From an uncultured Candidatus Binatia bacterium (GTDB lineage: Bacteria > Desulfobacterota > Binatia > Bin18), in contig CBDBEO010000006.1 in assembly GCA_965204455.1 (NCBI GenBank), forward strand, positions 12,980 to 76,979: a stretch of DNA of 64,000 nt, read 5' to 3'. Both the position numbers and the translations under genes were made by a program. The notes below the pieces were generated by a model. The model was not told the DNA's origin. It ran no database searches and saw only the letters and a list, made by a program, of their open reading frames with translations. Numbering within the stretch: the first letter of the stretch is position 1; each line of letters opens with the position of its first letter. Below, piece after piece: positions 46,362-63,952 of this stretch.

Positions 46362-46760
46362 CCCTCCTCTGCGCAAAAAAAGAAGTTTTTTCCCGGTTCT
46401 CACCCCCAGATCGGACCGGGAAAAAACGGGCTGGCCGGCCCGCAGGGCCACCCGCTGCTGCAAGCCGACTGGCCGCGCACCCCGTGACAGGGGCCTTGCC
46501 CTGGCGCGGGGCACGCAAGGAAGGCGCGGCCTTCACGCGGCCCGCCCGCAGGCGGCAGCCGTGACAGGCTTGCCCTGGCGCGGGTGCGCGGGCAGGGGCC
46601 ATCGGCGTGGTGCGCCCGGACAACGGGAGGGCGTACTACGCCTCAAGACTGCCGCCGCCCTGGGCGGGCGGGCTGGCCGCAGCGTGCGGAGGATCGGACG
46701 GGGCTGGGCGGGCTGGGCGGCCGTAGCGTGCGGAGGATCGGCCCAGGCCGGCCTGGGCGT
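46362..46760. repeat. Family A long structured repeat, copy 1 (upstream of ardC)
   Basis: TTTTTCCCGGTTCTCACCC..CGGACCGGGAAAAAA, two CCGTGACAGG..CCTGGCGCGG hairpins, GGCGTGGTG.GCCC..GGGCG.AC.ACGCC, GCGGAGGATCGGAC. Confidence 0.92.
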
Positions 46761-47023
46761 GCGGCCACCACTGGTCCGGATCGGGGCAGCGACAGAGGGC
46801 GGAAGCGGGCAACAGAGGGCGGAACGCCCCCGACAGAGGGCGGAAGCGAGGCCAGGGCCTTGTCTGGCCGATGACCCGCACCGACAGAGGGGGACCCGTA
46901 CCGACAGCGCCCGACCCGCACCGACAGAGCGGGCGGGGTGGGACGGGGAGCAGGGGAAGGGGGGGAGAGGGGGAGAGGAGAGCGGGGAGGCGGGACGGGT
47001 GCCCCGCCTCCCGAGCTGAGCGG

Positions 47024-47632
47024 CTACCACTGGCGCGCGCGCCGGCGCTCTGCGCGTTGACGGCGGCGCTCTTCGCGCTCCATCCTCCGGGCGGCCCGGT
47101 TCAACTCCCGCGAAGGGCTGAACCGCCCCCGCTCGATCTGCTCGGCTATGCGGGCGGCCTGGGCGGCCGTGGTCAAGACGGTTCCCAACCCGACGCCCCG
47201 CTGTGGCTGGCGCACGGGCGGCGGGGCTGGCTGGGGCACGATCCGCTGGGGGACGGGCGGCGGGTCGTGGCGCGGCTGCATCTGGCGGACCTCCGCCTGG
47301 TAGCGTTGCCGTGCCCGGGCAGCGGCGGCGGCTTCACGGCGGCGCTCCTCCGCACTCGGCTGCACCGACGTGGCCGGCTGCACCGGTTTTGGCTCCGACT
47401 TCACGGCGGTCGGCTGCACCGGTTTCGCGATCGGGGCGGGCTGGACCACCACCTGCTGCACGGCCGCTACTCCCCGCTTAACCGGCTGCGGGAAACTGAC
47501 CGACGTGGAGAACTGGTGGGCGACCGTACCCACGACAACGAGGCCGGCCAGGAGCTTCCACCGCCTGGTGCGCTTCCGTGCCTGGGTCAAGATGGCGGCC
47601 ATGGCGATCTGGTCTGCGGCGTACTGGTTCAT
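47024..47632 (-). CDS. Arg/Pro-rich membrane-anchored protein (paralog of 44009-44506)
   Basis: GGAGG RBS, TM helix, KPVQP repeats. Confidence 0.65.
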   Translation of the reverse strand: MNQYAADQIAMAAILTQARKRTRRWKLLAGLVVVGTVAHQFSTSVSFPQPVKRGVAAVQQVVVQPAPIAKPVQPTAVKSEPKPVQPATSVQPSAEERRREAAAAARARQRYQAEVRQMQPRHDPPPVPQRIVPQPAPPPVRQPQRGVGLGTVLTTAAQAARIAEQIERGRFSPSRELNRAARRMEREERRRQRAERRRARQW

Positions 47633-47935
47633 AGCTGAACCTCCCTTCCGGAAAAATTTGCTCACCCTCACAGCAAAAAAAGAGGCTCCGAAATCATGGG
47701 TTGCGAAGCCAGACGGCCGGCTTTTTTTGAGGCCCGGTTCAAAAAAAGGGGGGCGGCCTTGCCCATTGATTTTGGATTCTTTTTGCTAGACTGGAGCGAG
47801 CAAGGCAGGAAGGCACAACAACGCCGCAGCGGAGCGGAGCCTACGGAGCGCAGCAAGGCCACCTTGGAGACGCCAAGGGCCTTGGCTTGGCACAGCAAAA
47901 TGGGCCGGCTCGATGCCGGGCGATTTTGCCCTGGG
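47633..47935. repeat. Family B repeat, copy 2
   Basis: Same core as copy 1 plus TTTTGGATTCTTTTTGCTA and AAGAGGCTCCGAAA. Confidence 0.88.
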
Positions 47936-48190
47936 CGGTGGGGAGTGCCAGGCCGGGACAGCGCGAGTCTGGCCGGGCCGGCGCAGGGGGAGCGACGGAG
48001 GGCCGCTCCGAGGGCAGGAGGCAGGCGGAGGAGACGACACGAGGCCGTGCGGCCGAGCGAGGAGCCGCAGACCACGACGCAACGAGGGCCGGGCCGACCG
48101 AGCGGACAGAGTGGTGGACGGGAAAATGAAAAAGCAGGGGGTGGGAGCCCCCTGGCCGGGCTCTACCCCGCCCGGCTGGGGGAAGGGCGG

Positions 48191-48451
48191 CTAGGGAGGA
48201 TCGGAGCGGCGCAACAGCTCGGCCAACACTGCGCCTTGCCGTTCCAGCGCCCCGGTCATCGCGTCAAGCTGGCGGTCGCGCCGGTCGGCCGCGCGGTTCA
48301 TCTGCCGCAAGCCCCACACAATCACCCCGATCTGCCCAAAGCCGACACACCCGCCGACGATCACGCCGGCGATCTCCGCCCAATTCGGGGACGGCCCGGC
48401 CTGTAATGCGGCGACAGCCTCCCGCGCCAACTGGACCAGTTCCGTTTCCAT
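48191..48451 (-). CDS. Small membrane protein
   Basis: AGGAGG RBS; one TM helix and a coiled tail. Confidence 0.6.
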   Translation of the reverse strand: METELVQLAREAVAALQAGPSPNWAEIAGVIVGGCVGFGQIGVIVWGLRQMNRAADRRDRQLDAMTGALERQGAVLAELLRRSDPP

Positions 48452-48710
48452 AACGTCCTCCTTTCCGAAACTATGCCGAAACGGCCAGCAAAAAAAGAGG
48501 CTCCGAAAGCAAGGGCAGCAGAGCTGGGAGCGGAGCGACTGTACCCTTGCTTTTGGATTCTTTTTGCTAGACTGGGACGAGCAAGGCAGGAAGGCAGAAA
48601 AGACGCCAACCGGAGTCGGAGCTGGCGGTCGCGCCGGTCGGCCACCGTATAGACGCCAAGGGCCTTGGCTTGGCATGACACACACGACCGGCTTGATGCC
48701 GGGTGCGTGT
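48452..48710. repeat. Family B repeat, copy 3
   Basis: Same core; carries a 24-nt exact copy of downstream coding sequence. Confidence 0.85.
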
Positions 48711-49147
48711 GTCTCTGGCGGGGGGAGCGACCGGACCGGCTAGCGTCAGTCTGGCCGGCCGGAGCATGGGGGGCAGGGGACGGCAAACGCCCCGGCCCTG
48801 GCCGCTTGCCCCCGCGCGCGATCGCGTATTGTTGCAAGCGGAGCGAAAAAAGAGCGAATCTGAGGAAAATCAAGGACTTGTCGAGCTGCCATCCCGAGGT
48901 CCTGCACACTCGGGGTGGCAGCTCGGCGTTGCCCGGGCACAGGCGGCCGAGCTGGGCGGTGAGCTGTCAGCTAGCGCGTTCTCAGGGGGGAGGAGGGGTT
49001 AGTGGGAAGGCCAGCGTGCCTGTCGCGCGGGCCGGCCGGCGTGTGTGTTTCGGAAGAAACACACTGCACTGGCACGGGTCACAGACACCCCTCCATCTTG
49101 TGGTCGAGCACGGCCCTGTAGCAGCCCTCTGATCATAAGATAGAGGG

Positions 49148-62388: not shown

Positions 62389-62435
62389 CGGTCGTTCCTC
62401 CTGCGCCCCGCACGGGGCGCTGCTCGGGGTTAGCC

Positions 62436-62960
62436 CTAAGCGGGCAGATAGAGCACAAGCCCGTTCAGGGAATGAACGGTGCGGTGCATGGCGAACATCA
62501 CCAACAAATTGCCGTCAAGCGGGTAAGTCACCCCCTTGTCGGCGATAGTCTCCCGGCTGGCCGGATCGGGGCTCCAATAGATCGGCGTCCCGGCTGCCCC
62601 GTTCGGAGTCGGCGTGGCAGGCCGGCCGAGCTGGGCGCGGGCGGTCGCATCCCGCACGGCGGCCTCGGCCGTATAAAACAGATGCATGGTGAGGGCGTAG
62701 CGGATGCCCCGGCACAGGTGGATACCGTCGTCCTCCTCCATCGCCTCTCGCGCGTCAAAGTCAGTCGTATCGAGTACGAGCAGGTTGTCCGCAAACAACC
62801 GAGCCAGGTCGGCATCCTCGGTCGGGACACAGCCCTCCGCAATGGCATAGACCGCGCCGGCCCGAGCCTCGGGGGTCAGCGCAAAGAGGCGGGGGGAAGC
62901 GGCCTGCGCCCGTTGCCAGACTCGGCGTTCTAAGGTGTGCAGTTGTGGGCAGCTCATCAC
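62436..62960 (-). CDS. Hypothetical protein
   Basis: Family C RBS. Confidence 0.55.
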   Translation of the reverse strand: MMSCPQLHTLERRVWQRAQAASPRLFALTPEARAGAVYAIAEGCVPTEDADLARLFADNLLVLDTTDFDAREAMEEDDGIHLCRGIRYALTMHLFYTAEAAVRDATARAQLGRPATPTPNGAAGTPIYWSPDPASRETIADKGVTYPLDGNLLVMFAMHRTVHSLNGLVLYLPA

Positions 62961-63009
62961 GTGTTCCTCCTGCGCCCCGCACGGGGCGCTGTTCGGGTGG
63001 GGCCGGGGT

Positions 63010-63348
63010 CTATAGGCCCAGCGCCGTTTTCAGTTTCCCGCGCACATGCTCGGGGGCTTCCTCACGTTTACAGTTGATGCCCATCGCGGCAGCGGTGAGC
63101 CGGACGGCGTCCTCGGTCGGCACGCCGAGCACAGCGGCCATTTCGGTATCGAGCAAGCCGTCGCCGTGGTTCCCGGTCCGCTCGTAGAACATGGCCTGGA
63201 GCAGGCCAAAGCGGCGGTGGATACGTCGGCCTCGGTCCATGCCGGTGTAGTCGAGGAAGTAGTAGCCATCGGTTTCGACCGCCTGCCAGTACGGCGAAGC
63301 GGCCAAGGCTGCGAGCTGTGTCACAAGAGAGCTGAGGGTGGTCGCCAT
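63010..63348 (-). CDS. Hypothetical protein
   Basis: AGGAGG RBS; fits the operon. Confidence 0.55.
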   Translation of the reverse strand: MATTLSSLVTQLAALAASPYWQAVETDGYYFLDYTGMDRGRRIHRRFGLLQAMFYERTGNHGDGLLDTEMAAVLGVPTEDAVRLTAAAMGINCKREEAPEHVRGKLKTALGL

Positions 63349-63359
63349 CGCGTCCTCCT

Positions 63360-63587
63360 TTAACGGCGGCGGTTCTTGACAACGCGCGCGGGCGCGGGCT
63401 GTCCTGTCTCAATGAACACAAAGGAGCCGATGCCCTGGGGCACATCCCCTGCCTTGATGCCGCAACTCCAGCCATCGGCAGCCTCGGAGATATGGCCGGC
63501 CAGGTACACGAAAGTTCCCCATCCCGCAAAGACGATGGCGGAATAGGTCAGGGACGTTTCGGCTAGCCTGGGTGTACGGCGGGTCAT
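63360..63587 (-). CDS. Hypothetical protein (paralog of 56172-56393)
   Basis: First gene after family A copy 7. Confidence 0.7.
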   Translation of the reverse strand: MTRRTPRLAETSLTYSAIVFAGWGTFVYLAGHISEAADGWSCGIKAGDVPQGIGSFVFIETGQPAPARVVKNRRR

Positions 63588-63591
63588 AGGC

Positions 63592-63952
63592 TCCTCCTCT
63601 GCGCAAAAAAAGAAGATGTTTTTTCCCGGTTCTCACCCCAGACTCGGACCGGGAAAAAACAGCCTGGACGGCGCTTGCGCCTACCGCTTCCGCCAGCCTC
63701 CTGCCCGCGCCGGCCGTGACAGGCGAAGCCTGGCGCGGAAGGCGCAAGGAGGCGCTGTCTTGTGGGGAGTATGCGCAGCCGTGACAGGGTGTCCCTGGCG
63801 CGGGTGCTTGGGGGTGGGCCATCGGCGTGGTGTGTCCGCAACAACGTGCAGGGCGCACGACGCCTCAGACTGCCGCCGCCCGGGGCGGGCTGGCCGGCCG
63901 CAGCCTGCGGAGTGCCGGACACGGCCGGCCGGGGCGCTCGGCTACCGCTGGT
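63592..63952. repeat. Family A repeat, copy 7
   Basis: All family A blocks present. Confidence 0.92.

Follow-up and report, generated by a model that had tools for sequence, protein, structure and literature searches.

Early expression of plasmid genes from single-stranded DNA (ssDNA) has been reported for the F plasmid, where it is driven by Frpo1 and Frpo2 (PMC9849209), and for pESBL, whose ssDNA promoters fall into three classes and have had their starts mapped (PMC12672017). Plasmids of the pLS20 family of Bacillus carry EGeRS1, an element of 420-750 bp with many inverted repeats and five copies in pLS20, which is reported to have no duplex promoter and to block read-through (PMC8708921, Val-Calvo et al. 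2021). CUP of the IncN plasmid pKM101 and EGeRS2 of p576 are conserved upstream repeats heading several leading-region or establishment operons, described as duplex promoters with ArdK or Reg operators (PMC6289460, PMC8708921). Here we report on family A, a set of seven multi-hairpin repeats in a 64,000-nucleotide stretch of DNA (the window) from an uncultured Candidatus Binatia bacterium; the window corresponds to positions 12980-76979 of contig C6 (80,634 bp, 63% GC) within a 5.2-Mb genome. Family A is a sequence family not described before and probably represents single-strand control signals for early gene expression, because its copies front the gene clusters that would be transferred first and fold on the strand that would enter the recipient. 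The nearest published system is EGeRS1 by layout, and Frpo together with the pESBL class 1-3 promoters by proven mechanism; the concept is not new, only the sequence and architecture of this family are.

Seven copies of ~350-430 nt each, with pairwise identities of 68-92%, were recovered by a repeat search, by a seven-way alignment and by an nhmmer profile derived from that alignment and scanned against the whole genome (table 1). They lie where the preliminary description of this DNA had placed them, and the profile found no copy outside contig C6 in the 5.2-Mb genome. All seven occupy the + strand of a single 18-kb plasmid stretch, 1.7-4.9 kb from their neighbours, and the twin-hairpin motif they contain (H3/H4, see below) occurs 14 times on the + strand of the contig, never on its - strand and never in the other 5.1 Mb. 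Element windows have a GC content of 0.708, the remainder of the plasmid one of 0.618. The gene-side end of every copy consists of CAT and CCTCC, i.e. the start codon and the ribosome-binding site (RBS) of a minus-strand gene, and the first hairpin (H1) stands at a distance of ~25 nt from the RBS in all seven copies and in their relatives. This contact, combined with Pfam confirmation of ArdC (ArdcN plus a zincin peptidase domain), HNH plus PAPS_reduct (twice) and SSB (twice) among the gene products, bears out the earlier statement that each copy heads a minus-strand cluster (ardC, HNH twice, ssb twice and one unknown family twice); the first genes behind copies 4 and 7 are paralogues, 49% identical, encoding ~75 aa and belonging to no known family. 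The copy number is partly due to segmental duplication of whole operons (49148-51700 with 57214-60300, and 52166-53420 with 60720-62060, at 73-89% identity), the duplicated contents running from a zincin-like HExxH protein to the PAPS-reductase-like and HNH genes in the former case and comprising ssb and its downstream gene in the latter. Element similarity does not track operon paralogy, a mismatch that suggests exchange between copies.

Table 1. Coordinates of the family A copies and of other features in and near the putative leading region (positions within the window).
Feature	Position	Strand	Context	Hairpins or sequence
Copy 1	46363-46707, plus 44-nt-period internal duplication to 46775	+	upstream of ardC (45459-46355, -)	H1 start 46386; H3 core 46483-46508; H4 core 46560-46582; H6 apex doubled (46662, 46706)
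Copy 2	51284-51649	+	upstream of HNH (50884-51279, -) and PAPS-reductase-like gene (50114-50887, -)	H1 51309; H3 51407-51432; H4 51476-51501
Copy 3	53005-53369	+	upstream of ssb (52533-52913, -)	H1 53031; H3 53128-53153; H4 53197-53219
Copy 4	56401-56769	+	upstream of 73-aa gene of the unknown family (56172-56393, -)	H1 56424; H3 56521-56546; H4 56599-56621
Copy 5	~59895-60252	+	upstream of HNH (59492-59890, -) and PAPS-reductase-like gene (58722-59495, -)	H1 59919; H3 60015-60037 (compensatory ACACG/CGTGG); H4 60080-60102
Copy 6	61576-61801 and 61829-62007	+	upstream of ssb (61110-61487, -)	H1 61601; H3 61700-61722; ~60-nt insertion with degenerate third hairpin; H4 61835-61857
Copy 7	63593-63952	+	upstream of 75-aa paralogue of the copy-4 gene (63360-63587, -)	H1 63619; H3 63715-63737; H4 63780-63802
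oriT-like site	43455-43486	+	putative nic after 43485	inverted repeat CAACGT..ACGTTG, then GCGTATCCTG|C (TATCCTG|C)
Relaxase, MobA/VirD2-like nuclease domain	40654-41835	-	trailing side of nic	
MobC/NikA-like accessory gene	42866-43453	-	trailing side of nic	
ACAGAGGGCGG direct-repeat clusters	43596-43647, 46792-46843, 53390-53460, 63969-64020	+		3-4 units, ~20-nt period
Family B repeats	44490-44800, 47615-48060, 48435-48850, 53840-54210		abut RBS of minus-strand genes	
Genes behind family B	44009-44506, 47024-47632, 48191-48451, 53642-53857	-		

The strand assignment follows from the oriT-like site. Its inverted repeat followed by TATCCTG|C resembles the layout of RP4-type (MOBP) nic regions, and it is situated just upstream of the MobC-like and relaxase genes, both directed away from it. 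Because this motif sits on the + strand, + would be the transferred strand (T-strand) and everything above 43486 the leading region; nicking of the + strand would then let it enter the recipient 5' to 3' from 43486 upward. The preliminary description had likewise made + the T-strand from an RP4-type nic, and the motif, with the MobC/NikA-like gene and the relaxase beside it, is indeed present. All Pfam-supported genes between 44 and 64 kb would then have the entering strand as their template, which is the arrangement reported for leading regions (PMC11541004). The contig also carries a VirB-type transfer region, its open reading frames (ORFs) having been judged by eye. An H5-like hairpin (GGCGTGGTG...GCGCGACGCC TCAGAC) stands alone at 43697-43742, ~210 nt from the putative nic and without the rest of the element.

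Two replicons from other genomes carry both family A copies and an intact nic motif. In G027:C2, a nic region identical to that of the window is found beside an 89%-identical relaxase, accompanied by a second nic region, both on +, and three element copies lie on + beyond the nic regions. The two same-strand RP4-type nic regions of this 110-kb replicon (at ~51721 and ~63564) are 11.8 kb apart, the one that is not identical to the window's being of the G023 type, and element copies come after each. G023:C2 presents the mirror image: its relaxase is encoded on +, whereas the nic motif (at 11915) and all six copies are on the minus strand, the copies occupying the leading side and wrapping the contig end. 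Taking the three replicons with an intact nic motif together, all 16 copies (seven in the window, three in G027:C2 and six in G023:C2) are on the nicked strand, 3' of nic.

The element, with 71% GC, is predicted to fold into five to six separate hairpins in a row. Following the + strand from the gene outward, an A-run is succeeded by H1 (T6-CCCGGTTC / GGACCGGG-A6, whose loop invariably begins with TCTCACC), a short GC hairpin (H2), two twin hairpins, H3 and H4 (CCGTGACAGG / CCTGGCGCGG), H5 (GGCGTGGTGTGCCC / GGGCGCACGACGCC) and H6, a long bulged hairpin with the apex GCCGCAG..CTGCGG. In the H3/H4 core CGTGAC/GGCGCG, one T·G wobble never changes and an A·G mismatch is either kept or replaced by C-G; the upper part of the stem shows covariation (AGG/CCT, ACG/CGT, AAG/CTT and, in two metagenome copies, AAA/TTT). 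A Dcm/CCWGG-like reading of the H3/H4 stem was considered and found no support.

Covariation in H1-H4 was assessed on 15 sequences from four replicons, six of them from the window and nine foreign. Standard pairs account for 96.8% of 657 cells, compared with 91.5% in column shuffles (none of 500 reached the observed value) and 38-53% with slid partners. Both sides have changed in 11 of the 44 pairs, six of which belong to H1, where 19 distinct variants occur with the stem kept. The four stems named in the preliminary description, one of them twice per copy, are all present in the alignment and the consensus structure; the change from GCCC/GGGC to GGCC/GGCC it had noticed in copy 6 is seen at pair 69/87, and its view that the stems covary agrees with the double-sided changes.

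The departures from Watson-Crick pairing are strongly asymmetric between the strands. In H1-H4 they comprise 56 G·T cells on + versus five A·C cells (which would be G·T on -), in H5-H6 the figures are 24 and 5, and the wobble is the majority state at five G·T sites and at no A·C site. Read in the minus sense, the paired cells fall from 96.8% to 89.0%. The consensus is also more stable on + than on -, both with RNA parameters (-58.0 versus -42.3 kcal/mol for H1-H4 and -84.8 versus -59.9 kcal/mol for H4-H6) and with DNA parameters (-30.6 versus -18.6 and -45.9 versus -23.1 kcal/mol, respectively), the minus-strand values having been obtained by refolding the reverse-complement alignment from scratch and not by mirroring the + structure. 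The single copies, with predicted fold energies of -122 to -142 kcal/mol, are without exception more stable on +, by 12.6-21.1 kcal/mol. We also scanned the plasmid in 402 windows of 400 nt, 11 of them element windows and 283 located outside the leading region: the + strand energy is -115±14 in the former and -77±16 in the latter, the difference E(+)-E(-) is -12.2±8.3 versus +0.9±6.8, and after regression on G+T and GC it is negative in 10 of the 11 element windows. The alternative distal module of the relatives behaves similarly (-57.2 on + versus -46.8 on -; 36 G·T versus 11 A·C). The proposals that the elements fold on the transferred strand and that several of their non-canonical pairs are G-T on + and C-A on the mRNA strand are thus upheld; compensatory change is shown to maintain the pairs, with selection acting on the + strand only.

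As for conventional promoters, a scan for sigma70 sites returned one site in 20 kb, outside the elements, and a looser scan allowing 8/12 box matches found none on + in any of the seven copies and one on minus, in copy 7, leaving 13 of 14 strand-copies empty. Five of the seven copies lack the minimal -10 signature TAnnnT on both strands, and it is never conserved. Since these scans failed to pick up the boxes described for F Frpo as well, they are weak evidence, and the weight lies on TAnnnT and the architecture; at this level, the earlier remark that no sigma70 -35/-10 pair is conserved holds. A sigma54-like motif, TGGCGC-N5-NCGCA, noticed by eye on the 3' arm of H3 was rejected because its GG-N10-GC spacing, found in six of the seven window copies, deviates by 1-2 nt in copy 4 and the G023, G027 and G021 copies.

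Database searches characterize family A as restricted in distribution. Rfam gave no match at the gathering score over the whole window, and at E<=1 seven sub-threshold generic hairpin matches, none of them consistent across copies. Neither copy 4 nor a G023 copy had a blastn match in PLSDB, where tblastn with the relaxase found only matches of <40% identity and no near relative; the nhmmer profile had no match at E<=10 in 18 kb of the F leading region. Spread of the type known from miniature inverted-repeat transposable elements (MITEs) or REP sequences is not what we see, the copies being confined to one strand of one 18-kb stretch, with none in the other 5.1 Mb. The claim of a new family is consistent with all these results. 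DNA searches found it in seven of 55 genomes of the window's own family (the window's genome included), representing two genera, and an order-level search yielded nothing beyond the family. A pattern built on H1 was absent from 346 genomes in 19 other families of the class, although so strict a pattern would miss diverged members, and in a metagenome scan it picked out 12 loci, of which four (L169, L173, L175 and L179) are true members and eight are chance matches; family A occurs on two metagenome contigs. Another pattern, CGTGMCAGG-N3-9-CCTGGCGCG, proved too loose for GC-rich genomes, occurring in at least 115 stretches of the genome contigs, none of the listed loci matching the family profile at E<=0.01. 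The foreign copies share only the first ~225 nt (H1-H4), their distal module being different, and those of the relatives likewise precede ardC-like genes. A full-text literature search found no paper pairing an ssDNA promoter with Alphaproteobacteria, and no description of such repeats beyond the Frpo, EGeRS and CUP literature, the main texts being what it covered and supplements (e.g. Samuel et al. 2024 Table S2, with Frpo candidates) lying outside it.

The preliminary description had listed Frpo, ssi signals, CUP and EGeRS as the known leading-region signals and had allowed for a mechanism different from that of Frpo; in layout EGeRS1 is nearer than Frpo. EGeRS1 and family A are both multi-copy elements with many inverted repeats and a GC content above the plasmid mean; both lie directly upstream of the RBS of establishment operons, ardC among them, both have an internal duplication in one copy, and in neither has a sigma-A/sigma-70 promoter been seen. 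They differ in that the read-through block has been measured for EGeRS1, whereas its putative counterpart in family A is a terminator-like hairpin with a T-run, and in that EGeRS1 is a Firmicute element, whereas family A belongs to a 63% GC plasmid of Gram-negative type, with a VirB-like type IV secretion system and an RP4-type nic. For the EGeRS1 criterion of >60% identity, the comparison consisted of the PLSDB blastn search, with no match and with the presence of pLS20 in PLSDB unchecked. As to the active form, the EGeRS1 authors are reported to have had no evidence favouring ssDNA or RNA, while the G·T/A·C asymmetry of family A points to the transferred DNA strand.

With Frpo and the ssi group (F Frpo1/2, ColIb-P9 ssi, pESBL classes 1-3), family A shares the location on the T-strand of the leading region, the templating of the genes by the T-strand, the position upstream of ssb and anti-restriction operons, the repetition within one plasmid and the better folding on the T-strand (-110/-114 versus -102/-103 kcal/mol in F Frpo). 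However, F Frpo (upstream of ssb, and its twin) is one imperfect hairpin of ~290 nt and not a hairpin chain, and it is reported to rebuild canonical -35/-10 boxes (PMC9849209), no match to which was found on + at 8/12 in any family A copy. Homology was sought with nhmmer and in PLSDB with no match, F being the only member compared directly. Family A is not a member of Frpo because sequence, rebuilt boxes and the single-hairpin form all fail. CUP and EGeRS2 resemble it as repeats heading operons, but no promoter was found in family A, its pairs are strand-biased, and instead of a strong promoter with operator repeats it has ACAGAGGGCGG arrays at only three of the seven copies. Finally, RSF1010 ssiA/B, G4- and phiX174-type ssi and the sso of rolling-circle plasmids are orientation-specific hairpins active only in ssDNA, 40-300 nt long and not tied to an RBS; unlike these, family A keeps a constant register with the starts of genes.

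On balance, we lean with modest confidence towards family A being ssDNA control elements of establishment genes that fold on the T-strand. The entering + strand would fold in the recipient, and the folded element would recruit an RNA-synthesizing enzyme, most likely the host RNA polymerase, recognition depending on shape and on the mismatched twin hairpins instead of -35/-10 boxes. RNA synthesis would begin close to the base of H1, where alone the element is AT-rich; the RBS would be carried on a short leader, and ArdC, SSB, HNH and other proteins would be produced in a burst ahead of complementary-strand synthesis. That synthesis may also be slowed by the great stability of the folds, a delay that has been reported for an F ssDNA promoter (bioRxiv 10.64898/2026.01.09.698686). 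Duplex formation would then erase the signal: with no promoter in the duplex element, the genes would go silent, and the H2 hairpin with its T-run, in the mRNA sense, could shield each operon from upstream read-through.

Several points weigh against this interpretation. That transcription initiates at the elements is something we infer, and no -35/-10 pair is reconstituted in the folded form. The T-strand has been assigned by the resemblance of a motif to RP4-type nic sites. The gene-proximal hairpin, H1, shows no strand preference in energy and could act as RNA or as duplex. Seventeen of the 44 pairs never vary and most pairs of H3-H6 are invariant, with H5-H6 represented by only eight sequences; the copies are related by descent, so the shuffle controls are not probabilities, and the structures were predicted from the same sequences and alignment on which the pairs were counted. 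In G021, the orientation of a chromosomal copy is the reverse of what its relaxase would predict; the inversion of this segment with respect to G023 and the absence of ~45 nt around nic suggest a decayed element. The preliminary description had spoken of a new family of ssDNA-folded elements for early expression or priming: folding, strand and novelty of the sequence can be retained, whereas the function is one that we, too, infer.

A more specific form of the idea, which we regard as tentative and on the whole rather doubtful, is that of a box-free class of ssDNA promoter, in which the H3/H4 core and the TCTCACC loop of H1 would be recognized by shape and mismatch and the folds would also stall complementary-strand synthesis, lengthening the expression window. 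The reader in that case could be the host RNA polymerase, through mimicry of the open complex as in 6S RNA, or a dedicated factor of plasmid or host.

It is unlikely that the elements serve solely as signals for initiating or processing ssDNA, i.e. as ssi- or sso-like priming sites, at which primase, a primosome or RNA polymerase would make primers only, and/or as roadblocks timing complementary-strand synthesis. T-strand-specific folding, the missing promoter boxes and the spacing of seven very stable folds at intervals of a few kilobases all fit such a role, and in the published cases Frpo is reported also to prime DNA synthesis (PMC12672017) and an F ssDNA promoter to block conversion (bioRxiv 10.64898/2026.01.09.698686). 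Priming, however, needs no fixed register with genes, yet H1 keeps its distance from the RBS in every copy and in the relatives, and Pfam detected no primase domain in the 10 larger plasmid ORFs that were scanned.

Distinctly unlikely, in our opinion, is the interpretation of the repeats as duplex regulatory regions in the style of IncN CUP/ArdK or p576 EGeRS2/Reg, with hidden GC-rich promoters and operators for a plasmid repressor, whose lack in the recipient would bring about zygotic induction; the inverted repeats would be protein-binding palindromes. Repeats upstream of establishment operons are, according to the descriptions of CUP and EGeRS2, a hallmark of both (PMC6289460; PMC8708921), the ACAGAGGGCGG direct-repeat arrays flanking three of the seven copies and oriT resemble protein-binding arrays, and consensus scans detect promoters poorly in DNA of 63-70% GC, as their failure with the F Frpo boxes illustrates. 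Palindromic operators, on the other hand, have no reason to keep G·T over A·C in the proportions observed, least of all at five fixed sites, and ~380 nt of conserved nested hairpins far exceed the needs of an operator. The lack of TAnnnT in five copies argues in the same direction, and no repressor candidate was identified, no homology search for repressors having been made.

The elements might, in principle, act as RNA, namely as a long 5' leader of the minus-sense mRNA (an attenuator, a terminator or a riboregulator of inter-operon read-through), which we consider improbable. In five of the seven copies H2 and its T-run, immediately preceding H1 and the RBS, are terminator-like in the mRNA sense; H1 folds as well on one strand as on the other; the consensus retains a fold in the minus sense (-42 and -60 kcal/mol); and pLS20 EGeRS1 is reported to block read-through only in its native orientation (PMC8708921). 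In such a leader, however, the conserved wobbles become C·A mismatches, so that H3 and H4 would each have two mismatches in 10 bp, the loss of paired cells described above is incurred, no Rfam family matches, and the sigma70 site scan found no upstream promoter to feed it. Very improbable, lastly, are non-functional repeats spread by segmental duplication or gene conversion (for which the duplicated operons and the homogenization implied by element similarity independent of operon paralogy could be cited) or a plus-sense non-coding RNA, given that compensatory changes occur in two genera and two metagenome contigs and before non-duplicated genes such as ardC, that chromosomal copies like those of a MITE or REP are absent from the genome, and that a plus-sense RNA would have to be transcribed from a promoter lying within seven unrelated coding starts.

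Other features in and near the leading region deserve mention. The ACAGAGGGCGG clusters lie beside oriT and distal to copies 1, 3 and 7, with three units at 46792-46843; a similar ACAGAGGGCGG pair follows a copy in G035 (L017), and a one-base-shorter form, ACAGAGGCGG, occurs just distal to F Frpo on the T-strand. These arrays may be an accessory module, a protein-binding array, and in the case of F possibly a chance occurrence. A second repeat family, B, comprises four copies of ~300-400 nt with 66% mean column identity, whose windows also fold better on + (dE -12 to -18); within ~20 kb, 11 operons have an A or a B repeat at their head. Between the coupling protein and the relaxase, the + strand encodes two very large proteins recognized by eye as pentapeptide-repeat-like (35984-37543, 519 aa; 37556-40624, 1022 aa), and their C-terminal ~110 aa are near-identical. 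Strong intrinsic-terminator-like hairpins directly follow both ssb genes (61066-61125 and 52501-52558, both on -), the former with a sub-threshold Rfam match to suhB/mmgR (34.3 bits versus a gathering score of 41).

Early expression from ssDNA lets plasmids make anti-restriction, SSB and other protective proteins before the host defences act. The ssDNA promoters proven so far are enterobacterial (F, ColIb-P9 and pESBL) and depend on rebuilt sigma70 boxes, and enterobacterial ssDNA promoters are reported to be nearly silent in Sinorhizobium (PMC12672017). A GC-rich, box-free and strand-specific family with seven copies on one plasmid offers a clean test for a different recognition principle in other lineages. 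The signature of family A could, moreover, mark leading regions where searches for Frpo find nothing, and could flag the genes of unknown function behind each copy as candidates for roles in establishment or anti-defence.

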